Source of the DNA: Betaproteobacteria bacterium
GTDB taxonomy: Bacteria > Pseudomonadota > Gammaproteobacteria > Burkholderiales > SG8-39
DNA: 64,000 nt
Assembly (NCBI GenBank): GCA_022340285.1
Contig: JAJDOG010000094.1
Coordinates: 33,046-97,045, forward strand
Direction: 5' to 3'
In this document: one piece after another, positions 398 through 30,970 of the stretch
Layout of the letters: each line of letters starts with the position of its first letter
Numbering within the stretch: position 1 is the first letter of the stretch
Notes under the pieces: model-generated
What the model saw: only the letters and a program-made list of their open reading frames with translations
What the model was told of the DNA's origin: nothing
Database searches by the model: none
Made by a program: the position numbers and the translations under genes

Positions 398-2308
398 TCA
401 CTGACCGGCTACCTTGAGGTCGTTGTTCACGCGCACGACGCCGGACACCTCGCCCGCGACCGTTCCGGCCAGATCCCGCTGCGCCTGCGTCGAGACCGTG
501 CCGGTCAGGGTGACCACGCCGCCCGAGACTTTCGCGGTGATCTGCTCCTTGTAGAGGTCGCGGTTGAACTGCAGCTTGGACGCGACCTTGATGTTGATGG
601 CCTCGTCGCGGAAGAAGCTCGGCTCGCGTGCAGGTTCCGCGGGCGGCGACCCCGCTGCCGCCCGCAATGTCGTGGCGGAGGCGGCCCTCGCCCGCTCGGC
701 TTCCGCGCGGGCGCGTGCCTCCGCGGCGAGTTGTGCGTCGCGCGCACGTTGCGCTTCGGTCTGCGGCGCGCGCGTGGTGGCAGATTCCTGCACAGGTGCA
801 CCAGGTCTGTTTTGCAGCGCGATCGCGCGTGCCCGCTCGGCATCGGCACGGGCCTGTGCTTCGGCGCGGGCCTGCGCCTCGGCGGCGCGGCGAGCGGCCG
901 CCTCGCGTTCGGCGCGTGCCTTCGCTTCGGCGGCGCGCGCTCGCGCCTCGGCTGCTGCGCGCTCGGCACGGGCTTTCGCCTCTGCCGCCTCGCGATCGGC
1001 TCGCGCCTGCGCCGCAGCGATCTGCTCCGCCTCGACCGTTTCGCGCTCCGAGCGTGCGACATCGCCCGTGGCATCGACGGACGGCGCCGGGGACGGAGGT
1101 TCCGGAAGCTCTGTGGTCCGTGTCACGACCGGTTCGGTCGGCAGTGCGACATTCTCGGGGGTCGGCGACTCCCGTCCGGAATGCCACGCGACCACGCCGA
1201 CGGCGACCGCAATCGCGGCGCCCGCTATGGCCCAGGCGACGCCGCCGGTCCGGGATCCCTGCGCGGGCGCAAGCGCGTCAGTCGACGTGGTCGGCGGAGT
1301 GCTGCGCGGCGGAAGCGTGCGTGGAGGCGGCGCAAGGTCGCTGCCGGTGGAACGCGGCACGGGGGTGCTCCCCCAGCCGCTGCCGCGCTCGGTCTGCCAG
1401 GACGGATGGCTCGGATCGAACACCCCGGCCGCGTGCGCAGGCTCGTCGAGGATCGTCTCTTCGGAGATCGTTGGACTTACCGGCGCGGCGTAGGCTTCCA
1501 GAATCGCGGCCTTGAATTCCGCGGCGCTCGCGTAGCGATCCTCCGGCACCTTGCTGAGTGCCCGGGCTACGACCGGGTCATAGCGCTCCAGATCGCGGTC
1601 GGGCGCGACCGAGGACGGTGGTGGCGGCGACTCGTAGCAAACCTTGTACGCAAGCTGCTCGGCGCTGCCGGTGAACGGACGCGTTCCGGTGATGAGCTGG
1701 TACAGCATGACGCCCGCAGCGAAGATGTCCGCGCGCCAGTCCACCGTGTCGCCCTTGTACTGTTCGGGGGCCATGTACCCTGGCGACCCCATCACGGCGC
1801 CCACCTGCGTCAGCGCGGAGGAGTCGATTCGTGCGATGCCGAAATCGGCGACTTTCAGCTTGCCGCTGTTCATGATGATGATGTTCGCGGGCTTGACGTC
1901 GCGGTGCCATACCCCCTGCTCATGCGCGTGCTCGAGCGCGTCGAGAAGCTGTGCCATGAGGCTCACCACGTCGCGCTCCTCGAAACGCGTCTCGCGGCTG
2001 AAGTATGTGCGCAGACTGTTGCCTTCGACGTACTCCATCGCGATGAACGCGATATCCTCGACCTCGCCGTAGTCGTAGACCGCGACGATGCCGGGATGTG
2101 AGAGGCGCCCGGCGGCGCGCGCCTCGTTCTTGAAACGGGCCATCACCGTGCCAGCGCGGTCGTCGTCCTCGACAAGCTCCCGGCGAATCGTCTTGATCGC
2201 TACCGTGCGCTGGATATCCGGATCGTGCGCCTTGTACACGACTCCCATCGCGCCCTTGCCGAGCACGTCGGTCACCTGGTATTTGCCGAGACGCTGTGGA
2301 TGGTTCAT
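398..2308 (-). CDS. membrane Ser/Thr protein kinase with Ala/Arg/Glu-rich periplasmic spacer and C-terminal BON domain
   Basis: Hanks motifs are visible (GKGAMGVVYKA, HRDVKPANI, DFGIA, SPGYMAPE). There is a single TM helix (about 1184-1246), a low-complexity ARAEAE tract (665-1048) and a BON-like tail (about 410-616). Track ORF 398..3466 is an upstream read-through. Start taken at ATG 2308 (MNHPQRLGKYQV); the alternative is ATG 2350. Confidence 0.85.
   Translation of the reverse strand: MNHPQRLGKYQVTDVLGKGAMGVVYKAHDPDIQRTVAIKTIRRELVEDDDRAGTVMARFKNEARAAGRLSHPGIVAVYDYGEVEDIAFIAMEYVEGNSLRTYFSRETRFEERDVVSLMAQLLDALEHAHEQGVWHRDVKPANIIIMNSGKLKVADFGIARIDSSALTQVGAVMGSPGYMAPEQYKGDTVDWRADIFAAGVMLYQLITGTRPFTGSAEQLAYKVCYESPPPPSSVAPDRDLERYDPVVARALSKVPEDRYASAAEFKAAILEAYAAPVSPTISEETILDEPAHAAGVFDPSHPSWQTERGSGWGSTPVPRSTGSDLAPPPRTLPPRSTPPTTSTDALAPAQGSRTGGVAWAIAGAAIAVAVGVVAWHSGRESPTPENVALPTEPVVTRTTELPEPPSPAPSVDATGDVARSERETVEAEQIAAAQARADREAAEAKARAERAAAEARARAAEAKARAEREAAARRAAEAQARAEAQARADAERARAIALQNRPGAPVQESATTRAPQTEAQRARDAQLAAEARARAEAERARAASATTLRAAAGSPPAEPAREPSFFRDEAINIKVASKLQFNRDLYKEQITAKVSGGVVTLTGTVSTQAQRDLAGTVAGEVSGVVRVNNDLKVAGQ
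665..1048 (-). repeat. low-complexity coding tract (AEAKARAERAAAEARARAAEAKARAE...), TolA-domain-II-like
   Basis: Reiterated GC-rich Ala/Arg/Glu codons inside the kinase gene. This tract also generates several spurious ORFs in other frames. Confidence 0.7.
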
Positions 2309-2500
2309 GAGGTACGAGCCGGTGGCGGCGAAGCGCGCCTCAAGTGGCATCACGAGTCGATGCCGCATTTGTAGCAGCGGGACCAACATGGCGCAAGCGA
2401 CGGAATTCCGGCGCTCGCCCCGCCGCCTTTCGCTGCACGCAGTGCGCGGGTGCGAGAAAATGGCCGCTTCCAGATCACTTCGGCTAGCGGGAGAACGGGC

Positions 2501-3352
2501 ATGACCATCAAGGAAATCGGCATCGTCGGCGCCGGCACCATGGGCAACGGCATCGCGCAGGCATTCGCGGTGAAGGGTTACGCGGTTTCGATGACCGACG
2601 TCGCGGATGCCGCGCTCGAGCGCGGCGTCGCGGCCATCGACGGCAGCCTCGAGCGTCTGGTCAAGAAGGACCGGCTCGCGGCGGCCGAAAAATCCGCCGC
2701 GCTCGCCCGCATCCGGACGTCGACCGACCTGGAATCGCTCAAGGGAGCGGATCTCGTCATCGAAGCGGCAACCGAGAACCTTTCGCTGAAGCTCGGCATC
2801 TTCGCCGAGCTCGACCGGGTCGCTTCGAAGCGTGCCGTCATCGCGAGCAACACGTCTTCGATTTCCATCACCCGGCTCGCCGCCGCGACGAAACGGCCGG
2901 ACAAGGTGATCGGCATGCACTTCTTCAATCCGGTCCCCGTCATGCAGCTTGTAGAGCTGATCCGCGGGCTGCAGACATCGGACGCGACGTATGCCGTCGC
3001 GGAGGAGGCGGCGCGCGCAATCGGCAAGGCGCCCATCAAGGTCCGCAACAGCCCGGGCTTCGTCGTGAACCGGATGCTGTGTCCGATGATCAACGAGGCC
3101 GTCTACACGCTGGCCGAGGGGCTCGCGACCGCGGAGGAGATCGACAGCGCGATGAAGCTCGGCGCGAATCACCCCATCGGTCCGCTCGCCCTTTGCGACC
3201 TGATCGGGCTCGACGTCGAGCTGGCAGTCATGAACGTGCTGTTCGAAGGGTTCAAGGACCCGAAATACCGCCCCGCGCCGCTGCTCGTGGAGATGGTCGA
3301 GGCCGGGTATCTCGGGCGCAAGACCGGGCGGGGATTCTTCACTTACGGCTAG
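2501..3352 (+). CDS. hbd: 3-hydroxybutyryl-CoA / 3-hydroxyacyl-CoA dehydrogenase (NAD-binding)
   Basis: MTIKEIGIVGAGTMGNGIAQ Rossmann N-terminus and the C-terminal 3HCDH domain (GFVVNRML, PIGPLALCDLIGLD). GGGAGA RBS lies 6 nt upstream of ATG 2501. Confidence 0.9.
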   Translation: MTIKEIGIVGAGTMGNGIAQAFAVKGYAVSMTDVADAALERGVAAIDGSLERLVKKDRLAAAEKSAALARIRTSTDLESLKGADLVIEAATENLSLKLGIFAELDRVASKRAVIASNTSSISITRLAAATKRPDKVIGMHFFNPVPVMQLVELIRGLQTSDATYAVAEEAARAIGKAPIKVRNSPGFVVNRMLCPMINEAVYTLAEGLATAEEIDSAMKLGANHPIGPLALCDLIGLDVELAVMNVLFEGFKDPKYRPAPLLVEMVEAGYLGRKTGRGFFTYG

Positions 3353-17546: not shown

Positions 17547-18455
17547 TCACTTGCGCTTTGCGGCGAGCGCCCTGTGCACCTTCGATGCGGCCTCCCGGCC
17601 GAGCTCGCCACAGATGAAGCGGCCGGTCTCGAAGATCCGCTCGAGGTCGACGCCGGTCTCGATCCCGAGGCCGTCCAGCATGTAGACGACGTCCTCGGTG
17701 GCGACATTGCCCGACGCGCCCTTGGCGTAAGGGCAGCCGCCGAGGCCGGCGACCGAGCTGTCGACCACGTTCACGCCCTGCTCGAGGGCCGCGTAGATAT
17801 TCGCGAGCGCCTGGCCGTAGGTATCGTGGAAGTGCACCGCCATCTTCTTGATGGGGACGTCGCGCGCGACGGCCTCGATCATGTCCCGCACCTTTCCGGG
17901 CGTGCCCACCCCGATCGTGTCGCCGAGCGAGATCTCATAGCAGCCCATCGCGAAGAGTCGACGCGCCACCTCTGCAACCGCCTTCGGCTTGACCTCGCCT
18001 TCGTACGGACAGCCGGCGACGCACGAGATGTAGCCGCGCACCTTGACGCCGCGTTCCCTTGCGGCCTCGACCACCGGGGCGAAGCGATCGAGGCTTTCGG
18101 CGATCGAGCAGTTGATGTTCTTCTGGCTGAAGGTTTCGGAGGCCGCACCGAACACCGCGACCTCGTCGGCACCGGCGGCGATTGCCGCCTCGAATCCTTG
18201 CATGTTCGGGACCAGCACCGGATAGCTCACGCCGGGCTTGCGCGCGAGTCCGCGCATCACCTCGGCGCCGTCGGCCATCTGCGGCACCCATTTCGGGGAC
18301 ACGAATGCAGCCGCTTCCACCGCGGGAATGCCGGCTTCGGCGAGCCGCTCGACGAGCTCGATCTTCACAGCGGTGGGCACCGACTTCGGCTCGTTCTGCA
18401 ACCCGTCGCGCGGGCCGACATCGACGATCTTCACCTGACGTGGCAATCCGTTCAT
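17547..18455 (-). CDS. liuE: hydroxymethylglutaryl-CoA lyase
   Basis: [35 protein letters not shown] motifs. ATGA overlap with the upstream carboxylase gene. Confidence 0.9.
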
Positions 18456-20452
18456 CGCTTGCTCCGTTCGAAGGCGAGAAGCTCCGCGCCTTCTTCGACC
18501 TGCTCACCGACGCCGTAGAGCAGCTCCTTGACCGTACCGCCGGCCGGCGCCTTGATCGTGTGCTCCATCTTCATCGCCTCGAGAATGAGCAGCGGCGTTC
18601 CCTTCTCGACCGTGGCGCCGGCTTCGACCAGCACCGCGATGATCTTGCCCGGCATCGGCGCGGCGAGCCCGCCGTCGGCGCCGCTTGCCTCCAGCTCGTG
18701 CAGGCCCGGATCGTGCAGCTCGAGTGTGTGGTGTTCCGCACCCTGAAAGATGTCGATGGTGCGGCCGCTGCGCACCACACGTGCGGCAACGGTGCGGTCA
18801 TCGAGCCAGGCGCGCAGCGTCTCTCCGAAGCGCTCACCCGAAACCGTGCGTCGGCCGTGCGGCAGCTCGAGCTCGAATGCGTCTCCTCGGTAGTGGACCG
18901 TCACCGCGAACCGTCGTTCGCCTTCACGGAACAGGAAATCGTGGTGATTGTCCTCGTTGGCACGCCAGCCGTCGCGCGCGCCCCATGGTGAGTAGGGATC
19001 GCCGGCCGTCGCAGCATGCTCCCGGGCTGCCGACTCCAGCCTCAGCAGCTCGTCGAGCGTTGCAAGCGCGAGCACCTCGTCGCTCGCTGCCTGCGCAGGC
19101 GGAAAGAGCATCGCCCGATTGCGCTCGATCAGCCCGGTATCGAGATCGGCGCCGGCAAAGGCTTCGCTCGCGACCAGGCGCGCGAGAAAACCGATGTTCG
19201 TCGTGAGTCCGACGACCTCGAATTCGCCCAGCGCCGACCGCATCCGGGCGAGCGCGCCCGCGCGATCCGGACCCCACACGATGAGCTTCGCGATCATCGG
19301 GTCATAGTGCGGGCTGATCGCGTCGCCCGTGCGCACGCCCGTGTCGACGCGCACATATCGCGACGTCGCGGGCGCCGCCATGTGCGCGATCGTTCCGGTC
19401 GCGGGAAGGAAGTCCCGGTCGGGATCCTCGGCGTAGATCCGCGCCTCGAGCGCGTGACCCTCGAACGCGAGCCCATCCTGCGCGACCGGCAGCGGCTCGC
19501 CCGCCGCCACGCGGATTTGCCACTCGACCAGATCCTGCCCGGTGATCATCTCGGTGACCGGATGCTCGACCTGCAGCCGCGTGTTCATCTCCATGAAGTG
19601 GAACGTGCCGGAAGGGTCCGCGATGAACTCGACCGTCCCGGCGCCGACGTACCCGATCGCCTTCGCAGCGGCGACCGCGGCAGCGCCCATCTCGGCGCGC
19701 CGCTCCGCGGTGAGGCCGGGTGCGGGCGCCTCTTCCAGCACCTTCTGATGGCGGCGCTGGACCGAGCAGTCGCGCTCGAAGAGATGCACGCAGTGGCCGT
19801 GCCGATCGGCGAAGACCTGGATCTCGATGTGCCGGGGCCGGCGCAGGTAGCGCTCGAGCAGCACCTTGTCGTCTCCGAAGGCCGAGGCTGCTTCGCGCTT
19901 GCAGGAGGCGAGCGCCCCGGCGAAGTCGCTCGACTGCTCGACGATCCGCATGCCCTTTCCGCCACCGCCTGCCGAAGCTTTGACGAGGAGCGGATAGCCG
20001 ACTTTGTCGGCTTCCTTCTGCAGGGTCGCGGGATCCTGCTTGTCGCCGTGATATCCGGGCACCAGCGGGACTTTCGCCTTCTGCATGATCGTCTTTGCGG
20101 CGCTCTTCGAGCCCATGGCGCGAATCGCCGCCGCCGGGGGCCCGACGAAGACGATCCCCGCTTTCTCGCAGGCTTCGGCGAATGTGTCGTTCTCGGAGAG
20201 GAAGCCGTAGCCCGGGTGGATCGCTTGCGCGCCGCACTGTCTCGCCACCGCGAGGATCGCATCGCCGCGCAGATAACTCTCCTTCGCGGGTGCCGGGCCG
20301 ACGCAGTACGCCTCGTCCGCCGACGCGACATGCAGGGCGTGCGCGTCGGCCTCCGAATAGACCGCCACGGTGCGCAGGCCCATGCGCCGTGCGGTGCGGA
20401 TGACGCGGCATGCTATCTCCCCGCGATTGGCGATGAGAAGCGTCGCGAACAT
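18452..20452 (-). CDS. liuD: 3-methylcrotonyl-CoA carboxylase alpha subunit (biotin carboxylase + BCCP)
   Basis: [24 protein letters not shown]-grasp core, C-terminal biotinylation motif EAMKMEH. Confidence 0.9.
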
Positions 20453-20457
20453 CGGAA

Positions 20458-21258
20458 TTACGACGACCCCTTTTTCGGCAGCCAGGCCGGACGGCGCTTC
20501 TCGAGAAACGCCCGCACGCCTTCCTGGCCCTCGGGGGTCGCCCGCGCGGCGGCGATGCGCCGCGCCGTCTCGGCAAGCAACTCGGGCGCGAGCGGCGCGC
20601 CCGCCACGTCGCGGATGAGCCGCTTGCTCGCCGCCTGTGCATCGGGCCCGCCTGCGAGAAGCTCGCGACAGATGCCCGCCACCGCGTCGTCGATGCCCGT
20701 TGCTGGGACGAGCGCATGAACGAACCCGATCCGGAGCGCCTCGGCGGCGGAAAACCGCTCCGCCGTGAGGAAGTAACGGCGCGCGGCGCGTTGGCCCATC
20801 GCCGCGAGCACGTAGGGGCTGATCGTCGCGGGAACGAGTCCGAGCTTCACCTCGGAGAGGCAGAATTCCGCCTCCTCGGCGGCCACGGCGATGTCGCAGG
20901 CGGCGACGAGTCCCATCCCCCCCGCGTACGCCGGACCGTGCACACGCGCCACCGTCGGCTTGGGCAGCGTCGCGATGGTGTGGAGCATTTCGGCCAGGCC
21001 GAGCGCGTCGGCGTAGTTCTCCTCGGACGAGTAGCCGGCCATCTTCTTCATCCAGTTGAGATCGCCGCCCGCGCTGAATGCGCTGCCGCGGCCTCCCAGC
21101 ACGACGACACGCACGTTCGGGTCGCCGCCCATGCCGGTAAACGCCTTCGCCAGCTCGGCGATGGCCGTGTCGTTGAACGCATTGCGGATGTCGGGCCGGT
21201 TGAGCCAGATGCAGCCGATGCTGTCCCGCACGTCGATTTCTAGGGTTTCGTATTTCAT
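20458..21258 (-). CDS. liuC: methylglutaconyl-CoA hydratase (crotonase family)
   Basis: Crotonase fold (FSAGGDLNWM, GPAYAGGMGLVAACD), placed directly upstream of liuD-liuE. Confidence 0.8.
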   Translation of the reverse strand: MKYETLEIDVRDSIGCIWLNRPDIRNAFNDTAIAELAKAFTGMGGDPNVRVVVLGGRGSAFSAGGDLNWMKKMAGYSSEENYADALGLAEMLHTIATLPKPTVARVHGPAYAGGMGLVAACDIAVAAEEAEFCLSEVKLGLVPATISPYVLAAMGQRAARRYFLTAERFSAAEALRIGFVHALVPATGIDDAVAGICRELLAGGPDAQAASKRLIRDVAGAPLAPELLAETARRIAAARATPEGQEGVRAFLEKRRPAWLPKKGSS

Positions 21259-21481: not shown

Positions 21482-22756
21482 ATGAGCGAAGCGCAAGCGC
21501 ACGCTGCAGGCGTGCAACGCACCGCACTCGGTGTGCTCGCGGTATGCACCGCATTGAACTTTCTTTCGCGTGGCGTGAGCGACGCCTATGCAGTGTTCCT
21601 GTTGCCGCTCGAGCAGGAGTTCGGCGCCGATCGCGCGACGCTGACCGGTGTCTACTCGGTCTACATGCTGGTGCACGGTATCGCCGCGCCCGCTGTCGGG
21701 ATGGCGTTCGACCGGCTCGGACCGCGCATCGTGTATGCGGGCGGCCTCGCCTGTTATGGCATCGCGTACATGCTGGCAGGGAGCATCGGTGCGCTGTGGC
21801 AGCTCTACGCGCTCGCCGGCATTGCAGGCGGGATGGCCGCCGCGGCGATCGGCATGGTGCCGGCGTCGGGCCTGGTGAGTCGCTGGTTCCGTGCGCGCCT
21901 GCCCACGGCGATGGGGATCTTGTATGCATCGCTCGGAACGGGCCTGCTGCTATTCGCGCCGATCACGCAATGGCTGATCGACGCTCTCGGATGGCGCGGT
22001 GCGTATCGGGTGCTGGGCGTGTGCCTGCTCCTGATGCTTCCGCCGTTGCTCCTCCTGCCGTGGCGCAAGATGGCCGCGGGTCACCCGGACTACGGGGGGA
22101 GCGGGATTCGACGCACGGCACAGGGCGCTGCGTGGACGCTGTCGCAGGCGATGCGGACGACGCCCTTCTGGGCGCTCTTCGGGGTGATGTTCGTCACCTC
22201 GCTCAGCACGTACGCCGTCAACGTCCAGGTCGTCGCCTATCTCGTCGGGATCGGCTTCACGCCGCTCGAGGCTGCGTCGGTCTATGGCCTGGTGGGCATG
22301 CTGTCGGTGGTCGGCATGCTGGGTGCCGGCGTGGCGGCTGGGCGCTTTGGCGAGCGCGCGGTGGCGACCTTCGCCTATGCCTGCTCGATCGCGGGTATCG
22401 CGGCGCTTGCATTGCTCCAGTCGACGCCGTCACTGGTCCTGCTCGGTGCGTTCGTAGCGCTGTTCGGTACCGTCGCGGGCTCGCGCGGGCCGCTGGTGGC
22501 GGTCCTCTCCGCGCGCCTCTTCTCGGGTGGCGGCATGGGTGCCATCTACGGCGCAATCGTCCTCGGACTCGGTCTTGGTGGGGCGGCCGGTTCCTGGGGC
22601 GCGGGCGCGCTGCACGACCTGACCGGCGGCTACGGCGCCGGCTTTGCGCTCGGCGCATCGGGCGCGGTGGCCGGCATCGCGCTTTTCTGGACCGTCCCGG
22701 CGCTTCATATTCCTCACCGAGAAACGCATAGAGGGCAGAGGACCAGCCGGCAGTAG
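21482..22756 (+). CDS. MFS transporter (OFA/monocarboxylate-porter-like)
   Basis: Twelve predicted TM helices. Divergent from liuC and convergent with the MarR gene. Start at ATG 21482, or 21437 per the track. Confidence 0.85.
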   Translation: MSEAQAHAAGVQRTALGVLAVCTALNFLSRGVSDAYAVFLLPLEQEFGADRATLTGVYSVYMLVHGIAAPAVGMAFDRLGPRIVYAGGLACYGIAYMLAGSIGALWQLYALAGIAGGMAAAAIGMVPASGLVSRWFRARLPTAMGILYASLGTGLLLFAPITQWLIDALGWRGAYRVLGVCLLLMLPPLLLLPWRKMAAGHPDYGGSGIRRTAQGAAWTLSQAMRTTPFWALFGVMFVTSLSTYAVNVQVVAYLVGIGFTPLEAASVYGLVGMLSVVGMLGAGVAAGRFGERAVATFAYACSIAGIAALALLQSTPSLVLLGAFVALFGTVAGSRGPLVAVLSARLFSGGGMGAIYGAIVLGLGLGGAAGSWGAGALHDLTGGYGAGFALGASGAVAGIALFWTVPALHIPHRETHRGQRTSRQ

Positions 22757-22763
22757 CGACGAT

Positions 22764-23204
22764 TCAGAAGTCCATCGGTCCCGCAAGCTTCTCGAGCAGC
22801 TTCACCAGCTGGTGACGCTCCGCCGGTTTGAGCGCCGCATCGAAATACTCGACGGCCTGCGCGAAGATGGCGGGGAAGCATTTTCGGAATATTTCTTCCC
22901 CCTTTGGTGTCAGCTCGACGACCACGACCCGATCGGAATCGGCGTGACGGGTACGGATCAGGAGATCGCGCTGTTCGAGGCCCTTGACGGTGCGCGTGGT
23001 GCTGGCCGGGGAGATGAATGCACGCTGGGCCAGTTCCCCCATCGTCACCGACCCGAACTTGCCGAGGATGTCGATGACGTTGAGCTCAGCGCTCTGCAAG
23101 CCGAATCTGACCGCCACCGCGCGCGCGCGGTGCTGCAGGGCGTGATGGGTCAGCATCACGGCACGGAACAAGGCGATGTAGCTGCGCTCCTGCGGTGTCT
23201 TCAT
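22764..23204 (-). CDS. MarR-family transcriptional regulator
   Basis: Winged-helix core LNVIDILGKFGSVTMGELAQRAFISPASTTRTVKGLEQRDLLIR. Start at ATG 23204 (MKTPQERS). Confidence 0.85.
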   Translation of the reverse strand: MKTPQERSYIALFRAVMLTHHALQHRARAVAVRFGLQSAELNVIDILGKFGSVTMGELAQRAFISPASTTRTVKGLEQRDLLIRTRHADSDRVVVVELTPKGEEIFRKCFPAIFAQAVEYFDAALKPAERHQLVKLLEKLAGPMDF

Positions 23205-23242
23205 TACGGCGTTTCTGGCTTGTGGGCGATGCCCGGGGCGGC

Positions 23243-23953
23243 TCAAGATTGCCGCTCGAGCGTGTAGTGCGTGTACTCCGCGAACAGGTTGGGCCAAACA
23301 TGTAGCCCGGCCGTCAGGACGGTACGTCCAAGGCGGCTGTGCCGGCGAGGATTCTTTAGCGCTGGCACCTTCTCGAGAAGCCGCAGCATGGGCGTCTCTT
23401 CTCCGATGAAGCGGTCGAAGTCGTCGTCAAAATTGAAAAAACGGATGTGCAGGCCTTCGCCGTCGTTGGTGTGGAGGAGGTCCTTGCTGAGCCGCCCACG
23501 CACGAAGTCCCAGCGATACCGGAGACTGACCGCATTCGGCAGGGTGACCAGCAGACGGCCGCCGATTCGCACTGCGCGCGCGGTCTCGCGCAGCGTATGA
23601 CCCGGGTCGAAGACGTGCTCGAGGCAACAGAGCAGGGTCGCGAAGTCGAACGCGTCATCGTCGACCGGAAACCGCTCCGCGGAGACATCGCATGGCCGCG
23701 ACTCGAGACCTCGCCTGGCGGCCATATCCCGCGCATAACCCGAGACGTCCAGACCGAGGACCTTGCAGCCCTTCGCTCGCATCAGCATCTCGCCCAGCAC
23801 GCCGTCGCCGCTCGCGACGTCCAGCACACGGCTCCCGTCGGCTATCCGCTCGACCGCAAAGTCCCAGCGACTGCGCCACCGCTTGTCGAGCGTCTGGTAT
23901 TGCGGCAGAGAGAGCTTTTCCGTCCAGACGCGATCGTAGTACTCGGCAATCAT
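23243..23953 (-). CDS. class I SAM methyltransferase (MetW-like / type 11)
   Basis: VLDVASGDGVL motif I, CCLEHV, GGRLLVTLPN. ATGA overlap with the upstream UbiD-family gene. Confidence 0.75.
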   Translation of the reverse strand: MIAEYYDRVWTEKLSLPQYQTLDKRWRSRWDFAVERIADGSRVLDVASGDGVLGEMLMRAKGCKVLGLDVSGYARDMAARRGLESRPCDVSAERFPVDDDAFDFATLLCCLEHVFDPGHTLRETARAVRIGGRLLVTLPNAVSLRYRWDFVRGRLSKDLLHTNDGEGLHIRFFNFDDDFDRFIGEETPMLRLLEKVPALKNPRRHSRLGRTVLTAGLHVWPNLFAEYTHYTLERQS

Positions 23954-25380
23954 TTTGCTCGCTCCTTGTGCGCCGCTGCCCATAGGGTGCGAGCGCGCGC
24001 ACGCTCTTCGTCCGAGTAGCCGGCGACGCGAAAATGGGATGCCGCGGCGCCGAACGGCCGGCACGCGTCGATCAACATGCGCGAGTTGAGCCCGCCGCCT
24101 TCGGCGCCGACCGCCGGGTCCAGCGGTCCGCCCCAGGCGCCGCGAATGAGGTCGACGTCCCGTGCCGGGTCGGAGCGCGTGCTCATTGCCCACAACACGT
24201 CGTCGATATTCGTCGGGTCGATATCCGCGTCCACGGCAACGAGGTATCGACCCATGTAGGCGCCCGCCGGCAGCGCGGCGGCGGCCATCAACGACTGCCG
24301 TGCGTGGCCAGGATGCCGCTGCTCCAGTGCAACGACGATGAATAGGCGCGTCCCCGCCGCGGGATGGCACCAGACGCCGCGAATCGGCCCGACCCCCGCC
24401 TTCTCCAGCTGGTCCCACAGCAGTGCGGATCGGAAGATGGACCAGAATGTCATGAGCTCCGAGGGCGGCCTCGCGGTGCCGACACCGAGGATGATCGGCT
24501 GCTCCCGGTGATGGACGGCTTGCACTCTGATCAATGGTTCCTGGCGCGCCTCGCGACTGTAGTACCCGCTCCATTCGCCGAACGGCCCCTCCGCGGCGAG
24601 TTGATCGCACAGGACCTCGCCTTCGAGCACCAGCTCAGCATGCGCGGGCACCGGCAGCCCATGCAGCGGTGTCTGAACGGTCTCCAGCGGTTCGCCGGCG
24701 AGCCCGCCCCATACGTCGTACTCGCACGTTCCGTAGGGGATATTGAGGCCGCCAACGATCAGGAGCGACGGATGCTGCCCGCAACAGATCGCGATCGGCA
24801 TCGCTCGCCCTGCGCGCTGCCAAGCCTCGAAATGCCGGCGCGAATCCTTGCCCGACGACACGCGGTAGAACACGTGTCGCGCATCGTGGACCATCACCCG
24901 TGCGGTACCGACATTTGCCGCGCCCGTCTCGGGGTCTCGTGTGACGCAGAGCGTTCCCGTTCCGATGTAGCGACCGCCGTCACCGGCACGCCACTGCGGA
25001 GACGGAAAGCGATAAAGATCGACCTGGTTCCCTTCCTGCCGGCAGTCGAGTATCGGACCCGCCGACCCGGTGTGATGCGGGACCAGTTGCAGGCTCCCGT
25101 AGCGCCGCTTCCATTCAGCGACCACCTCGAGCGTCGGAAGCTCGGCCGGCAGTCCGCCTGCGTGCGCCACCCGTCCGGGCGTTCCCAGGGCATTCACCAG
25201 TACCCGATAGCCCTTTGGATAGTCGGGAATGTCATCGAACAGCAACGCCGGAGAGTCTGCCTGCTTGCCGACGAGATCGGCGACCGCGCCGATCTCCACG
25301 CGCCAGTGCACGCCGCGGAGTGTTACAAGCTCGCCTTTCTCCGCCGTCTGGCGGAGCCAGAGCCGCAGGTCCTGTTGCAT
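23950..25380 (-). CDS. UbiD-family (prFMN-dependent) decarboxylase/carboxylase, motif-complete paralog
   Basis: NVGTAR (N-x4-R), CEYDVWGGLAG, AELVLEGEV...EGPFGEWSGYY. The last contains the E-x4-E acid-base pair known from Fdc1/UbiD. Confidence 0.85.
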   Translation of the reverse strand: MQQDLRLWLRQTAEKGELVTLRGVHWRVEIGAVADLVGKQADSPALLFDDIPDYPKGYRVLVNALGTPGRVAHAGGLPAELPTLEVVAEWKRRYGSLQLVPHHTGSAGPILDCRQEGNQVDLYRFPSPQWRAGDGGRYIGTGTLCVTRDPETGAANVGTARVMVHDARHVFYRVSSGKDSRRHFEAWQRAGRAMPIAICCGQHPSLLIVGGLNIPYGTCEYDVWGGLAGEPLETVQTPLHGLPVPAHAELVLEGEVLCDQLAAEGPFGEWSGYYSREARQEPLIRVQAVHHREQPIILGVGTARPPSELMTFWSIFRSALLWDQLEKAGVGPIRGVWCHPAAGTRLFIVVALEQRHPGHARQSLMAAAALPAGAYMGRYLVAVDADIDPTNIDDVLWAMSTRSDPARDVDLIRGAWGGPLDPAVGAEGGGLNSRMLIDACRPFGAAASHFRVAGYSDEERARARTLWAAAHKERAK

Positions 25381-25391
25381 CCTGAGCTGTG

Positions 25392-26915
25392 TCAGGTGAC
25401 GTCAGCCCAGAGCTTGTCGACCCTGGCCTCGATCTCCGGCTTGACGACCACGCGGTCGAATACCTTCAGACCGAGCGGGACCGTGCAGTCGACACCCATG
25501 AGCGGTCGTACATTGAGCGGGAGCTCCGGATGGCCGTCGTAGATGCCCAGGCGCGTCGGGCCGCCCATCTTTCCCTGCGCGAGCGGGTCGATGACCATGC
25601 CCACCACGTTGGGGACGACGAGCAGGTCGCGATCGGCCATGAAGCGGTGCGCGAGCGCCCAGTCCCGCTCGCGCGGGTTGCGGATGTCGACATCGTGGTC
25701 GTAGACAAATACATGCTTGGCGAAGCCGGCGAGCGCAGTGTAGGCCCGCATCATCGCCATCCGCGGCTCGCCGACCCGCCCCTTCTTGATCGACACGTGG
25801 ACGGTGAAGCCGCAGCCCGCTGACGGATCGACGAAGACGTCGACCAGATTCGGCATCACCATCTGCACGTCACGGAACACGCGGACCGAGCGGAAGAATG
25901 CCGCCATGTTGTTGCATTCGTTGAGCGGTAACCCGATGTGCACGTGCTGAAAGATCGGGTTGCGCCGCATCGTGATCGCCGTGACCTCGAATACGGGGCG
26001 CCGCCGCGGTTCGTCGTAGAAACCGTTGAACGAGGCGTACTTGCCCTGCATGCCCCAGTTGAAAGGACGCATGATGCCTTCGACCACGATCTCGGCATTC
26101 GCCGGGACCATGACGTCGATCGTCTCGCACTTTACCAGCCCCACGGGCTGGCCCATCAGGCCGCCGATGAAAGCAAAGTCGTTGTACTTGAATGGCATGC
26201 CGGGGTTGGCGCCGGTCATCAGAAACTCGGGGGTCACACCGATGACGTAGGCCATCGGGAACGGCTTTCCCTGCGCTGGGTCGTGGGATTTCTCGGGATC
26301 GGCGATCTTGGCGCCCCACGCTTCTTCGATCGCGCGCGCGTCGCCGGTCAGCCGGAACACCCAAACCGTGCCCTCCCGCTTACCCTGGACTTCGAAGCGG
26401 TGGTAGGAAAGGTTATGGCTCGATGGGCCGGGCTGCGAGCAGGCGAGACTCGAGATGAACCGTCCCTCGGTCGACTTCGGTCCGCCTCCGTCCTCGGGAT
26501 TGAGCCGCAAGACCGGCAGCAGCCCGAGATCGACGTCGCTCCCCTTGAGCACGATCTCGCGGCACGGGGCCTTGGCGGGATCGACCGTCACCGGGGGGAT
26601 GCCGCCGCTTCCCATGACCTTGCCCATCTTCTCGGCTGCCTCTGCAACGGCGTTAGATTCCGAAACCCCGAAGCACTCCGCGATTCGCTGATAAGTCGAG
26701 CCGACGGTATTGGCAAGGACGGGAATCGCCGAGCCCTTCGGCTTCTCGAAGAGAATCGCCTTGTTCATGCCGCTTGAATCGGCACGCGCGATGAACGCGC
26801 CCATCTCGTCCAGCGGGTCGACCTCGTCGCGCACGCGCAGCACGTCGCCGCGGCCGTCGAGCAATTCGAGATAGTCCCTGAGATCCTTGACCAGTTCGCC
26901 GTCTGCTCGTTTCAT
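25392..26915 (-). CDS. UbiD-family protein, divergent paralog lacking the EGPFGE motif
   Basis: Same fold signature (NLSYHR, FIGGLMGQPVGLVKC, NAEIVVEG), but QGKYASFNGFY replaces EGPFGE-x-GYY. Lies 11 nt upstream of the other paralog. Confidence 0.8.
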   Translation of the reverse strand: MKRADGELVKDLRDYLELLDGRGDVLRVRDEVDPLDEMGAFIARADSSGMNKAILFEKPKGSAIPVLANTVGSTYQRIAECFGVSESNAVAEAAEKMGKVMGSGGIPPVTVDPAKAPCREIVLKGSDVDLGLLPVLRLNPEDGGGPKSTEGRFISSLACSQPGPSSHNLSYHRFEVQGKREGTVWVFRLTGDARAIEEAWGAKIADPEKSHDPAQGKPFPMAYVIGVTPEFLMTGANPGMPFKYNDFAFIGGLMGQPVGLVKCETIDVMVPANAEIVVEGIMRPFNWGMQGKYASFNGFYDEPRRRPVFEVTAITMRRNPIFQHVHIGLPLNECNNMAAFFRSVRVFRDVQMVMPNLVDVFVDPSAGCGFTVHVSIKKGRVGEPRMAMMRAYTALAGFAKHVFVYDHDVDIRNPRERDWALAHRFMADRDLLVVPNVVGMVIDPLAQGKMGGPTRLGIYDGHPELPLNVRPLMGVDCTVPLGLKVFDRVVVKPEIEARVDKLWADVT

Positions 26916-27019
26916 CTCGCGCCTCCTCTTTCGCTACCGCGGGTTGTCGATTCGAGAGCCGCCTCTTGCTGCGATGCCGCAAACTTTTCCGCCCGGTTCG
27001 AGCAGAAAGCCTAGCACAT

Positions 27020-27034
27020 GGAACATTTCCATCT
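27020..27034. promoter_or_regulatory. perfect inverted repeat ATGGAA-cat-TTCCAT upstream of the UbiD operon (candidate MarR operator)
   Basis: 6+6 bp palindrome, 105-119 nt upstream of the first UbiD start, in the only sizeable gap (26916-27109) on that strand. Confidence 0.25.
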
Positions 27035-27109
27035 GGAAGCGTTCGCGTACCAAGGGCACGCAAGGAAAGCGCGGAAGGAAGCCGCGGCCGAAGCGTGCGC
27101 GGGGTCGAG

Positions 27110-28261
27110 CTACGGCGCGAAGCGCTTCGCCACTTCCTCGAGCATCACCTCGGTCGCCCCGCCGCCGATGGAGAGGATCCGCGCGTCGCGCACCAGTCGC
27201 TCAATGGCAGTCTCGCGCATGTAGCCCATCCCGCCGTGGAACTGCTGGCAGGTGTAGGTCGCCTCGTTCGCGAGCTCGCCGGCAAAGGCTTTCAGCATCG
27301 AAACTTCGCGTACGCCGTCGCGCCCCTGGCTCATCAGCCAACCGCAGTGGTAGAGAAGCTGGCGCGCTGCCTCGTTCTTTGCCTGCAACATCGCGAGCCG
27401 CTGGCGAATGGCCTGCTTGTCGAAGAGCGTCGCGCCGAACGCCTTGCGGCTCATCGTATGCTCGAGGGCGAGGCGGATGGCCTGCGCGGTGTGTCCGATC
27501 GCCATCGCGCCGAGCACCACGCGCTCGTTCTGGAAGTTGCGCATGATCGCGTAGAAGCCGCCGTTCTCCTCGCCGAGGAGATTCTCCGCCGGGATACGGC
27601 AGTCTTCGAAGACGAGCTCAGCCGTGTCCGACGAGAGCCAGCCCTGCTTCTTCAGGGCGCGGCCCACGCGGAAGCCCGGCGTGCCCTTCTCGACGATGAA
27701 CATCGAGAGGCCGCGCGAGCCCTTCGTATCGGGATCGGAGCGTGCTGCGACGAAAAAGAGATCGCCGTGCACGCCGTTGGTGATGAACATCTTGGTGCCA
27801 TTCAGCACCCAGGAGTCGCCGTCGCGCCGCGCGCGCGTACGGATCGCCGCAACGTCCGAGCCCGCGTCCGGCTCGGTCACAGCGATCGCCGTGATGAGCT
27901 CGCCCGCGACAACCTTCGCGAGATAGCGGTCGCGTTGCGCCTTCGAGCCGGCGTGCACGAGGTGCGGCGCGGCCATGTCGGTATGCACCAGCACGGTGAC
28001 GATGAACCCGCCGAATGTCGACTGCGAAAGCGCCTCGGCAAACACGACGTTCGTAAGCGGATCGGCGCCTGCACCGCCGTACTCCACCGGTGCGGTGATC
28101 CCGAGAAAGCCGAGGGCGCCCATCTTGCGCAACACTTCGCGCGGAACGTGGCCCTGCTCCTCCCACGCCTCGGCGAAGGGCTCCACCTCTTTGGCGATGA
28201 AGCGGGCGACCTGCTCGCGGAGCGCGTCGTGCTCGGGGGTCAGGTAGATCGATTCGGCCAC
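27110..28261 (-). CDS. acyl-CoA dehydrogenase (possibly filling the isovaleryl-CoA dehydrogenase role)
   Basis: TEPDAGSD, LNGTKMFITNG, QFHGGMGY motifs. Glu in FQNERVV and Gly-rich IGGGATEV suggest IVD/LCAD-type base placement, which is tentative. Confidence 0.85.
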   Translation of the reverse strand: MAESIYLTPEHDALREQVARFIAKEVEPFAEAWEEQGHVPREVLRKMGALGFLGITAPVEYGGAGADPLTNVVFAEALSQSTFGGFIVTVLVHTDMAAPHLVHAGSKAQRDRYLAKVVAGELITAIAVTEPDAGSDVAAIRTRARRDGDSWVLNGTKMFITNGVHGDLFFVAARSDPDTKGSRGLSMFIVEKGTPGFRVGRALKKQGWLSSDTAELVFEDCRIPAENLLGEENGGFYAIMRNFQNERVVLGAMAIGHTAQAIRLALEHTMSRKAFGATLFDKQAIRQRLAMLQAKNEAARQLLYHCGWLMSQGRDGVREVSMLKAFAGELANEATYTCQQFHGGMGYMRETAIERLVRDARILSIGGGATEVMLEEVAKRFAP

Positions 28262-28280: not shown

Positions 28281-29342
28281 CTAGCAGCGGTTCGCCTTGA
28301 AGTACTGGAGGGCGCGCTCGTTGCCGTTGTTGGCGGCGCGTTCCCACCACGCGCAGGCGCTCTTGACGTCGCGGGGTGCGTTCTCCGCGTTCCACGAGTA
28401 GATCCCGAGATTGAGCTGCGCCTGGGCGTCGCGCTGGTCGGCGGCGCGCGTCCACCACCTCACGGCGGCCTCCGGGTCGCGCGGCACGCCGAGGCCCTTG
28501 TCATAGACCACGCCGAGCGTGAAGAGCACGTCGACCCAGCCGTCCTTCGCCGCAGCCTCGAGCCATTTACGACCCTCCTCGGGGTCGGCCGGCACGCCGC
28601 GCCCGTACAGAAGTGCGGTGCCGACGACTGCTGCCGCCCGGGTGTTGCCCGCTTCGGCGAGAGGCTTCAGCAGAGCGATCGATCCGGCCATGTCGCCTGC
28701 CTGCTCGCGCTTCATGGCCGCCTGCAGTTCGGGCGGCGCCGTGAGGGGCAGGAAGCGGAGGCTTTCCAGGAACCGCCCGCCTGCCTTGGTGAGCACTTCG
28801 CTCATCACGCCTTCGCCGCCGCGCTCGGAATACGCCACGTCTGCCAGCCGATCCGGCTGATCCGGATGGACGCAGGTGAGGCCGCGGAACTGCATCAAGA
28901 CGTTCTCGTCGCCTTTCTCGCCCCGATCGATGGCCCGTATCGTGTACCGGGAGCACGGCTGACCCCGATGCTCGGTCGGCACCTCCTCGTGGGCGAGCTT
29001 CGTGAGCCGCTTCGCGTCGAGTCCCGTCTCGCGTCGCGTGCGCATGTGCTCGGAGAGCTCGCGCGCACTCTTGAACGCTCTGCCGGGACGCAGCGTCAGC
29101 ACGACGAATGCCCAGGTGCGCTCGGGCTGCACTACCTGCTTGCCGATGGCCGCCGCCTCGCCGGTGCGAAGCTGGCTGTACAGGTCGTCGAGTCCGGGCG
29201 TATCGACGACGAAGCCTGCGAAAGGCCACGGGGCCCCGGCATTCACGATCGGGTTGGCGAGCGGTGTCTGCTGCTGCGCCCGGGCGGGATCCGGCAGCAT
29301 CAGGGCGGCGACAATAAGCAGGATCGGGAAGACTCGTCGCAC
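28281..29342 (-). CDS. exported Sel1/TPR-like repeat protein with unknown N-terminal domain
   Basis: GTG 29342 is preceded by AGGAGA (6-nt spacer). Signal peptide VRRVFPILLIVAALMLPDPARAQQ. C-terminal Sel1 repeats (GRGVPADPEEGRKWLEAAAKDG..., GLGVPRDPEAAVRWWTRAADQ...). Confidence 0.7.
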   Translation of the reverse strand: MRRVFPILLIVAALMLPDPARAQQQTPLANPIVNAGAPWPFAGFVVDTPGLDDLYSQLRTGEAAAIGKQVVQPERTWAFVVLTLRPGRAFKSARELSEHMRTRRETGLDAKRLTKLAHEEVPTEHRGQPCSRYTIRAIDRGEKGDENVLMQFRGLTCVHPDQPDRLADVAYSERGGEGVMSEVLTKAGGRFLESLRFLPLTAPPELQAAMKREQAGDMAGSIALLKPLAEAGNTRAAAVVGTALLYGRGVPADPEEGRKWLEAAAKDGWVDVLFTLGVVYDKGLGVPRDPEAAVRWWTRAADQRDAQAQLNLGIYSWNAENAPRDVKSACAWWERAANNGNERALQYFKANRC

Positions 29343-29362: not shown

Positions 29363-30970
29363 TCACATCCGGAACACGCCGAAGCGCGTGTCCTCGACGG
29401 GCGCGTTCAGCGCAGCGGAGATCGCGAGACCGAGGACACGGCGGGTATCCTCGGGGGCGATCACGCCGTCGTCCCAGAGGCGCGCCGTGGCGTAGTAGGG
29501 ATGGCCCTGGCGATCGTACTGATCGAGGATCGGCTGCTTGAACGCCTCCTCCTCCATCCTCGGCCAGGTGCCGCCCTTCGCCTCGATGGCGTCGCGCTTC
29601 ACCGTGGCGAGCACCGAGGCGGCCTGCTGCCCGCCCATCACCGAGACGCGCGCGTTCGGCCACATCCAGAGAAAGCGCGGGCTGTAGGCCCGACCGCACA
29701 TGGCGTAATTCCCGGCGCCGTACGAGCCGCCGATGATCACCGTGAACTTGGGTACTCGCGCGCAGGCCACGGCGGTGACCATCTTCGCGCCGTCCTTCGC
29801 GATGCCGGTGTTCTCGTACTTCTTTCCGACCATGAAGCCGGTGATGTTCTGCAGGAAGACGAGCGGGATGCCGCGCTGGCCGCATAGCTCGATGAAGTGC
29901 GCGGCTTTCATGGCCGACTCGGAAAAGAGTATGCCGTTGTTGGCGACGATGCCGACCGGGTAGCCGTGAATGTGTGCGAAGCCGGTCACGATCGTGGTGG
30001 CGAAGCGCGCCTTGAACTCGTCGAGCTCGCTCGCGTCGACGATGCGTGCAATGACTTCGCGCACGTCGTAAGGCTTGCGGTTGTCAGTGGGGATCACGCC
30101 ACCGAGCTCAGCGGGTGCGTGCAGCGGCTCGCGTGGCGGCACGACGTCGAGCGCGACGCGCTTTCTCAAGTTCAGGTGCGAAACGATGCGCCGCGCGATC
30201 GTCAGGGCGTGCGCGTCGTTGACGGCGAAGTGGTCCGCGACGCCCGAGATCCGTGTGTGCACGTCGGCTCCGCCGAGCTCCTCGGGGCTGACCACCTCGC
30301 CGGTGGCAGCCTTCACGAGCGGCGGCCCGCCCAGAAAAATCGTTCCCTGCTCCTTCACGATCACGGCTTCATCGCTCATTGCCGGGACGTAGGCGCCGCC
30401 GGCCGTGCAAGAGCCCATCACCACCGCGATCTGCGGGATGCCCGCTGCGGACATGTTCGCCTGGTTGTAGAAGATCCGCCCGAAGTGCTCGCGGTCGGGG
30501 AACACCTCGTCCCACGTGGGCAGATTCGCGCCGCCCGAGTCCACCAGGTAGAGGCAGGGCAGGCGGTTCTGCGCGGCGATCTCCTGTGCGCGCACGTGCT
30601 TCTTCACCGTTATCGGGAAGTAGGTGCCGCCCTTCACCGTCGCGTCGTTCACGACGACGATGCACTCGCGCCCGGATACACGACCGATTCCCGTGATGAT
30701 TCCGCCGCAAGGCGCGTCGTTGTCGTACATGTCGTAGGCCGCGAGCTGCGAGAACTCGAGGAACGGCGAGCCCGGATCGAGCAGCGTGCGCACGCGTTCG
30801 CGTGGCAGCAATTTGCCGCGCGCGACGTGCCGCGCACGCGCCGACTCGCCGCCGCCCAGCGACACCTCGGCCACGCGCTCGCGCAGGTCGGCGACCAGGC
30901 GGCCCATCGTGGCGTGGTTTGCGCGGAATTCTGCCGAGCGGGCGTTGAGAGCGGTCTTGATGGCGGGCAT
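29363..30970 (-). CDS. liuB: 3-methylcrotonyl-CoA carboxylase beta subunit (carboxyltransferase)
   Basis: 535-aa carboxyltransferase: [38 protein letters not shown]. Confidence 0.9.

Follow-up and report, generated by a model that had tools for sequence, protein, structure and literature searches.

The subject of this analysis is a four-gene cassette in a 64,000-nucleotide stretch (hereafter the window) of contig JAJDOG010000094.1, from a betaproteobacterial metagenome-assembled genome (MAG). The cassette encodes two different UbiD-family proteins, here called A and B, a methyltransferase (MT) and a MarR-family regulator. Protein A belongs to a narrow, strongly constrained UbiD clade in which the Glu-Arg-Glu loop has been permanently replaced by Gln...Ser. 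The Glu-Arg-Glu network is treated as a defining, essential catalytic feature of UbiD enzymes; in AnFdc1 it is formed by E277-R173-E282, with N168, H191 and E233 as the metal/phosphate ligands. Our overall reading, to which we give an even chance of being correct, is that the cassette is a mobile, MarR-controlled short pathway in which A is a working prenylated flavin mononucleotide (prFMN) protein with a remodelled site.

The cassette and the element upstream of it are arranged as follows:

25392 to 26915, minus strand: UbiD-family protein A, 507 aa; Pfam UbiD_N, UbiD and UbiD_C
23950 to 25380, minus strand: UbiD-family protein B, canonical, 476 aa; Pfam UbiD_N, UbiD and UbiD_C
23243 to 23953, minus strand: class I S-adenosylmethionine (SAM)-dependent methyltransferase (MT), 236 aa; Pfam MetW, Methyltransf_11 and Methyltransf_23
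22764 to 23204, minus strand: MarR-family regulator, the last gene of the operon, 146 aa; Pfam MarR and MarR_2
27019 to 27038, minus strand: operator-like near-palindrome TTCCAGATGGAAATGTTCCA, 103 nt upstream of the ATG of A

An original prediction for this DNA had described UbiD paralogs of 507 and 476 aa, the second of which runs into a MetW-like methyltransferase followed by a MarR gene, and had noted that only one paralog carries the Glu-x4-Glu motif. Both the layout and the motifs were confirmed. A spacer of 11 nt separates A from B, the ATG of MT overlaps the TGA of B as ATGA (4 nt), and 38 nt lie between MT and MarR. The motifs read NLSYHR, YNDFAFIGGL and QGKYASFNGFY in A, and NVGTAR, CEYDVWGGL and EGPFGEWSGYY in B. 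Membership of the UbiD family is supported for both proteins by all three domains (PF20695, PF01977 and PF20696), which score above their gathering thresholds at 65, 147 and 79 bits in A and 43, 201 and 109 bits in B. No NCBIfam equivalog cut-off was reached by A, B or MT. Protein A is a UbiD member by fold and domains that fails the catalytic signature of the family, whilst B is an ordinary member of the PhdA/HudA branch. No curated family or paper was found giving the cassette a function. A literature search, the coverage of which was incomplete and which can thus provide absence of evidence only, brought to light neither a UbiD clade without the Glu pair nor this cassette.

The catalytic site of protein A

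According to three concordant alignments, Q290 and S295 of A correspond to the two Glu residues of E-G-P-F-G-E, and D246 corresponds to the metal-site Glu. These were a phmmer alignment against HmfF, which is free of gaps and of high confidence, a BLASTP alignment of A with B, and a profile-profile alignment of both families. No equivalent Glu is retained in A, as had been predicted from the motif. N168 and R173 are kept, so that where the canonical network would be Glu-Arg-Glu/Asp, A has Q290-R173-S295. In B the network is intact (E264-R161-E269), and its catalytic residues N156, R161, E220, E264 and E269 are invariant in the B family alignment.

The altered motif is shared by an entire family. 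A search of 1.84 billion representatives clustered at 50% identity recovered family A as a single cluster (856 bits), the nearest protein outside it scoring 275 bits at 39% identity. Among the 120 homologues listed, which are 57-88% identical to A, the motif Q-G-x-F/Y-A-S-F-N-G-F/Y-Y is near-uniform; His replaces Gln in two of them, and 20 lie outside the search pattern used. Q290, S295, N168 and R173 are invariant in an alignment of 27 family A sequences. The nearest relatives, comprising 143 full-length representatives together with B, carry E or D at the first Glu position in 139 of 144 cases and at the acid-base position in 142 of 144, and A keeps approximately 55 of the roughly 70 positions that are at least 75% conserved across them. 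The family is spread over the Alpha-, Beta- and Gammaproteobacteria, the Acidobacteria and the Myxococcota. An altered motif that is invariant in such a family represents a fixed state and not decay. Between cassette copies the pairwise ratio of nonsynonymous to synonymous substitution rates (dN/dS) is 0.08-0.15 for A, 0.07-0.18 for B and 0.07-0.17 for MT, with dS at 0.5-1.7 and partly saturated, and amino-acid identity between the copies is highest for A of the four proteins.

The AlphaFold2 model of A has a mean predicted local distance difference test score (pLDDT) of 78.8 and a predicted template modelling (TM) score of 0.82. Its low-confidence parts are confined to residues 327-331 and 426-485, the latter with a pLDDT of approximately 31. 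Foldseek comparison of the model returned HmfF as the best match (TM-score 0.84), with HmfF, VdcC and Escherichia coli UbiD spanning 0.75-0.84, and the model thus predicts a complete UbiD fold. Residues 426-485 are highly conserved and clade-specific, reading …AQGxMGxxxKLGVYDGYPELPLNVRxFMGVDCTVPLG…, with an insertion of about 14 residues relative to B; Cys477 within this region is invariant in the clade and is Ala in 92% of the relatives.

These data leave practically no room for a scenario in which A is a UbiD duplicate that has no function and is decaying. The absence of the two catalytic Glu would fit such a scenario, and nothing else does. The open reading frame (ORF) is intact, the replacement residues are invariant, dN/dS is close to 0.1, the predicted fold is complete and the family is conserved across phyla, and we regard decay as refuted by the conservation data. 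Nor is A a recent duplicate, since A and B are only 25% identical (BLASTP). Recent tandem duplication was rejected on this identity together with the different nearest structures of the two proteins, HmfF, VdcC and UbiD for A as against PhdA and HudA for B. Judged by sequence, A and B come from different deep branches of the UbiD family. The variant type has itself been duplicated elsewhere: one gammaproteobacterial MAG locus (L032) holds two tandem copies (38-1642 and 1780-3321), 62% and 54% identical to A, both of which read NLSYHR and QGAFASFNGFY.

The closest characterized protein to A is HmfF, a 2,5-furandicarboxylate decarboxylase (PDB 6h6v, 6h6x), at 187 bits and 29% identity. HmfF and the hexameric UbiD/VdcC branch share with A the three-domain UbiD fold and N-x-S-x-H-R, as well as the pairing with UbiX that is usual in relatives. 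However, HmfF has E-G-P-F-G-E where A has Q-G-K-Y-A-S and an Asp at the metal-site Glu, and A differs further in a conserved insertion at approximately residues 447-472 and in the absence of hmf genes or UbiX nearby in the window. With the Glu pair absent and no UbiX or hmf-type neighbours, A does not belong to the HmfF/HmfG type. The JGI label "2,5-furandicarboxylate decarboxylase 1" is based on similarity only, and the source annotations are in general either generic or similarity-based.

What such a site might still do can be gauged from mutants of Fdc1. Of the Glu substitutions made there, only Glu-to-Asp retained activity; E277Q and E282Q still bound and matured prFMN with decarboxylase activity lost, and Arg173 was required for oxidative maturation of the cofactor (PMC5818171). 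The Gln-Arg-Ser site of A should therefore bind and mature prFMN, although it could not carry out the textbook protonation step without some other group in the place of the lost acids. The natural state of A involves the same kind of substitution as E277Q and E282Q, but those are engineered single mutants and A carries further fixed changes (P292, G294A, D246, E175, D192, D301 and the insertion), which suggest a remodelled site rather than a dead one. Three acids are invariant and specific to the clade, namely E175 (two residues past R173), D192 and D301. At the metal/phosphate ligand sites A has N168, G191-D192 and D246. The column of H191 holds His in 84 and Asp in 25 of 143 relatives; B carries Asp in this column, and D192 of A adjoins it. 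Metal ligation by A through D192 and D246 is plausible from these alignments.

Genomic distribution of family A and its partners

The distribution of family A was assessed in a genome scan with two peptide patterns and one genome per species, which returned at least 49 genome loci (L003-L051). All were from MAGs, assigned to Woeseiaceae, Marinicaulis and other Parvularculaceae, Sphingomonadales, Myxococcales and others; most represent lineages of marine sediment or soil, for example Woeseiaceae, Marinicaulis and Erythrobacteraceae. In about 40 of the 49 loci A occurs without a second UbiD gene (tblastn and clustering of neighbours). The commonest neighbour of A, a protein of approximately 190 aa, is UbiX (Pfam Flavoprotein, 146 bits). 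Of 52 non-redundant loci, 33 have UbiX no more than 6 kb away from A; among the 31 loci with sufficiently long flanks the figure is 25.

Genes which recur around solitary A encode TetR/MarR regulators, TonB-dependent receptors, thiamine-diphosphate enzymes, aldehyde dehydrogenase, OsmC-like proteins, DUF2390 and DUF3179, whilst a CoA ligase and a tannase flank one cassette (L052). Solitary A genes thus sit in catabolic, substrate-regulated and uptake-linked neighbourhoods. In the Woeseiaceae-type loci (L009-L018 and L043) a string of TetR, DUF3179, 2Fe-2S ferredoxin and DUF2390 genes precedes UbiX and A, with a double OsmC-like gene, a thiamine-diphosphate enzyme with a Tat signal and an aldehyde dehydrogenase nearby; this string may be the native pathway of the solitary A genes.

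A neighbour-joining tree divides family A into three clades. The first, of Woeseiaceae type, has UbiX divergent from A-MarR; the second, alphaproteobacterial, has UbiX-TetR divergent from A; and in the third, monophyletic in this tree, A is followed by a second UbiD gene. This second protein is always canonical, being either B or, in two loci, a protein 42-43% identical to B with E/DGPFGE. In these two loci, both in alphaproteobacterial MAGs (L005, 9697-11097; L019, 6419-7990), A is followed by the other canonical UbiD (NLGTYR, E/DGPFGE) and MT is missing, so the pairing of A with a second UbiD appears to be older than the recruitment of MT. Protein A is the ancestral member of the A-B pair and was ancestrally paired with UbiX.

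The position of B is quite different. Its orthologues are 63-100% identical and fall into about 31 clusters; beyond a sharp gap, all other relatives reach at most 50% identity. In every orthologue context inspected A lies upstream and MT downstream. Relatives of B at 45-50% identity are solitary or lie beside another canonical UbiD, and were rejected as an explanation of the pairing for that reason. The best solved structure for B is 7pda (339 bits), followed by HudA. The former is PhdA, the phenazine-1-carboxylate decarboxylase of Mycolicibacterium fortuitum (PMC10850782). B shares all catalytic residues with PhdA and HudA/PA0254, the heteroaromatic-acid branch, but unlike PhdA it belongs to an orthologue group set apart from its next relatives and has no adjacent phdB (UbiX) or phdC. 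The original prediction had treated A as the accessory, degenerate partner of an active B. This does not hold: the asymmetry is reversed, with orthologues of B found only beside A and A usually found without B, and the motif of A is fixed under the constraint described above.

It could nevertheless be argued that A and B form one heteromeric (de)carboxylase, in which B supplies the Glu pair and A is non-catalytic or regulatory, for example holding the cofactor or the substrate. The 11-nt and 4-nt-overlap junctions, the fixed gene order and the finding that B orthologues are never seen without A all speak for this. There are also precedents with two UbiD-like subunits, namely phenylphosphate carboxylase and the Desulfobacterium anilini phenylphosphoamidate carboxylase, the latter having no gamma or delta subunits (PMC7500099), and the activity of VdcCD needs an extra subunit (PMC10865409). 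However, in two of the three clades, and in about 40 loci, A is found with UbiX but with no second UbiD, from which it follows that A has a function independent of B; A is moreover more conserved than B, and the pair is 25% identical as compared with 52% for the subunits of the D. anilini enzyme. We therefore consider a heteromer unlikely.

The layout of phenylphosphate carboxylase from Thauera aromatica, to which the cassette had been likened, is similar in that two different UbiD-like proteins (alpha and beta) are encoded side by side. The cassette has no synthase, gamma or delta genes, however, the relatives of A are mostly single, and the curated cut-offs were missed by a wide margin, with A at 123.5 bits against the alpha model (TIGR02723, cut-off 564.6) and B at 282.9 against the beta model (TIGR02724, cut-off 469). 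Against the VdcC model (NF041204, cut-off 650) A and B scored 226 and 270 bits, and with no small subunit or UbiX in the window the VdcBCD/LpdBCD type does not apply. Curated cut-offs and missing partner genes thus led us to reject phenylphosphate carboxylase, VdcCD and HmfF as identities for A and B, and MetW as an identity for MT.

The close association with UbiX raises another possibility, that A has the UbiD fold but handles prFMN as a maturase, carrier or chaperone. It would receive reduced prFMN (prFMNH2) from UbiX, oxidise or store the cofactor and hand it to client decarboxylases. In the cassette the client would be B, and where A is solitary, other UbiD enzymes would take that place. 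The Arg173 on which maturation depends is present in A, and the Glu residues that serve catalysis alone are missing (PMC5818171); no gene neighbours A more often than UbiX, and a role centred on the cofactor would be in keeping with the very high conservation of A across phyla. Dedicated helpers are also known, since VdcD, LpdD and PhdC/YclD are non-decarboxylase, prFMN-related partners co-encoded with UbiD decarboxylases, and more have been postulated (PMC10865409, PMC13040415). These helpers, however, are small proteins of unrelated folds, whereas A is a full-length UbiD homologue, and UbiD enzymes bind prFMN tightly. The link to UbiX does not discriminate, because UbiD-type enzymes commonly have their own UbiX, and an adjacent UbiX has been lost in most of the cassettes that carry MarR. 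As the solitary A genes also lie in substrate-regulated, uptake-linked catabolic settings with TetR/MarR regulators and TonB-dependent receptors, such a role seems improbable.

The cassette and its insertion among liu-like genes

The order A-B-MT-MarR was found with at least six different sets of neighbours, in which the gene order is constant and the junctions measure 4-14 nt (38 nt between MT and MarR in the window). Five of these contexts were tabulated gene by gene. The neighbours of the cassette are:

Window: liu-like genes
L054: EVE-domain gene upstream
L058: EVE-domain gene upstream and malic enzyme gene downstream
L055: divergent UbiX-like gene
L057 (L056 being a shorter duplicate): AhpC upstream and thiolase downstream, beside the mraZ cluster
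L059: CMD-family gene and TctC

Two other loci (L052 and L004) have A-B-MT followed by UbiX, and in a further one (L053) the gene after A-B-MT encodes a TonB-dependent receptor, both MarR and an adjacent UbiX being absent. The absence of UbiX and of gamma/delta-type small subunits that had been pointed out for the window was upheld: when the 64 kb were searched by tblastn with E. coli UbiX, no match had an E-value below 0.14, and the gene spacing inside the cassette leaves no room for a small-subunit ORF. Most cassettes of the MarR type, that of the window included, have no adjacent UbiX; its absence is thus typical of this cassette form and implies that the cofactor is supplied in trans.

MT scored 54.7 bits against TIGR02081, the MetW equivalog, the cut-off of which is 189.5, and its best solved structure reached only 37 bits. 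Its family is small (65 clusters), and members with at least 54% identity lie on contigs equal in size to the cassette contigs. MT was seen only beside A; a homologue in Chloroflexia at 50% identity has no linked UbiD gene. MT thus has a generic class I SAM methyltransferase fold and belongs to a small, cassette-specific family. The MarR gene occupies the same position in L054, L055, L056, L057, L058 and L059. When the regions upstream of A from six cassette loci were aligned, the sole conserved block was TTCCA-N-ATGGAAATGTTCCA followed by TGCTAGGCT, the latter being a possible extended -10 element. The near-palindrome occurs once in the window as compared with 0 expected in shuffles, and the regions upstream of A in L056, L057 and L059 contain a related pattern. 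We infer that the near-palindrome at 27019-27038 is a putative MarR operator overlapping the promoter. Scans for promoter and terminator consensus sequences were uninformative.

The genes that surround the cassette in the window are the following:

29363 to 30970, minus strand: carboxyltransferase, upstream of the cassette (Pfam/NCBIfam)
28281 to 29342, minus strand: Sel1-repeat protein, 353 aa, between the carboxyltransferase and acyl-CoA dehydrogenase genes
27110 to 28261, minus strand: acyl-CoA dehydrogenase in the liuA position, the upstream edge of the insertion (Pfam and synteny)
21482 to 22756, plus strand: major facilitator superfamily (MFS) transporter, 424 aa, within the inserted block and outside the conserved cassette; Pfam MFS_1
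20458 to 21258, minus strand: enoyl-CoA hydratase in the liuC position, the downstream edge of the insertion (Pfam, NCBIfam and synteny)
18452 to 20452, minus strand: biotin carboxylase of the methylcrotonyl-CoA carboxylase alpha (MCC-alpha) type, after the enoyl-CoA hydratase (Pfam, NCBIfam)
17547 to 18455, minus strand: 3-hydroxy-3-methylglutaryl (HMG)-CoA lyase, after MCC-alpha (Pfam, NCBIfam)

With a carboxyltransferase, an acyl-CoA dehydrogenase, an enoyl-CoA hydratase, a biotin carboxylase carrying the MCC-alpha BT domain and an HMG-CoA lyase (484 bits against a cut-off of 246), all recognized by Pfam and NCBIfam, the surroundings constitute a liu-type cluster, of the kind that serves leucine/isovalerate catabolism. 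Synteny was checked by a metagenome scan with the dehydrogenase, which yielded 80 loci, and the proteins of the window were then compared with these by tblastn. In approximately 40 related metagenomic loci the carboxyltransferase, dehydrogenase, hydratase, MCC-alpha and lyase genes form one contiguous run, and none of these has a UbiD gene between dehydrogenase and hydratase. The cassette together with the MFS gene is thus an insertion in this lineage, as is the Sel1 gene, and the original prediction that the cassette interrupts a liu cluster stands. As the carboxyltransferase and dehydrogenase genes which flank the Sel1-repeat gene are directly adjacent in most related loci, this gene looks like a second, separate insertion into the same cluster.

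At the edges of the block neither long repeats, whether direct or inverted, nor features resembling tRNA genes or insertion sequences (IS) were seen, and no transposase gene lies next to the cassette in the window. Transposase genes (Transposase_mut; Y1_Tnp/IS200-like) do occur a few kb to approximately 9 kb from the cassettes in L052 (5607-6806) and L054 (469-1200), which fits mobility of the cassette. The plasmids in PLSDB contained no member of family A, every match being below 31% identity. The MFS gene is convergent with MarR, with a gap of 7 nt, and its best NCBIfam models are L-lactate, oxalate/formate and monocarboxylate transporters. Neither the other cassette loci nor the liu-type relatives yielded a homologue of this transporter. 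Its gene may have been acquired in a separate event, or the protein may be a host-specific partner that imports or exports a carboxylic acid.

Proposed role of the cassette

The reading of the cassette as a short pathway built around a working A draws on the independence of A, with UbiX, in catabolic settings, on the dependence of B on A and on the gene order. A-B-MT-MarR would be an operon complete in itself, acquired horizontally and equipped with a conserved operator-like site, that came to lie between the liuA-like and liuC-like genes of the betaproteobacterial MAG. A gene unrelated to it, that of the MFS transporter, was presumably inserted along with it. MarR would leave its operator in the presence of the substrate, and prFMN would come from a UbiX gene elsewhere in the genome. 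A would bind prFMN and act first, on an aromatic, heteroaromatic or acrylic carboxylic acid, either with rewired acid-base catalysis or by a different chemistry; E175, D192 and D301, which are specific to the clade, would be the candidate replacement acids. A more speculative option is that a dicarboxylic substrate itself supplies the missing proton, leaving a mono-acid for B. The product of A would then be taken by B, as a PhdA/HudA-like canonical decarboxylase, and what results would be methylated by the dedicated MT. A decarboxylate-then-methylate route of this kind, as was suggested originally, seems plausible.

Several points should be set against this proposal. Loss of the acid-base Glu abolishes activity in Fdc1, and A may hence not be a decarboxylase at all. 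A heteromeric enzyme composed of A and B would account equally well for the order of the genes and for their tight coupling, and the UbiX on which the pathway would depend was not found within the 64 kb of the window. No cultured isolate is among the 49 genome hits for family A, the counts of which are lower bounds as the scan relied on two peptide patterns. The tree that separates the three clades is a neighbour-joining tree without support values, and the partial saturation of dS bears on the dN/dS ratios quoted above.

A wider possibility, which we put forward tentatively and with the balance of probability somewhat against it, is that family A is a natural UbiX-linked lineage that uses prFMN without the universal Glu acid-base, either for another reaction or as a maturase or carrier for clients such as B. 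The reaction could be, for example, an isomerisation that proceeds via a cycloadduct, or a decarboxylation in which a dicarboxylic acid, as the substrate, itself assists. Cassettes such as this one illustrate how annotators come to label such proteins as ordinary decarboxylases. A conserved, UbiX-linked clade that spans several phyla and lacks both Glu residues would mean that prFMN chemistry extends beyond reversible, acid-base-assisted decarboxylation, or else that the UbiD fold has been recruited for cofactor handling. Either outcome would be of relevance to the engineering of enzymes for CO2 fixation and decarboxylation, and to the long-standing difficulty of activating some UbiD enzymes.

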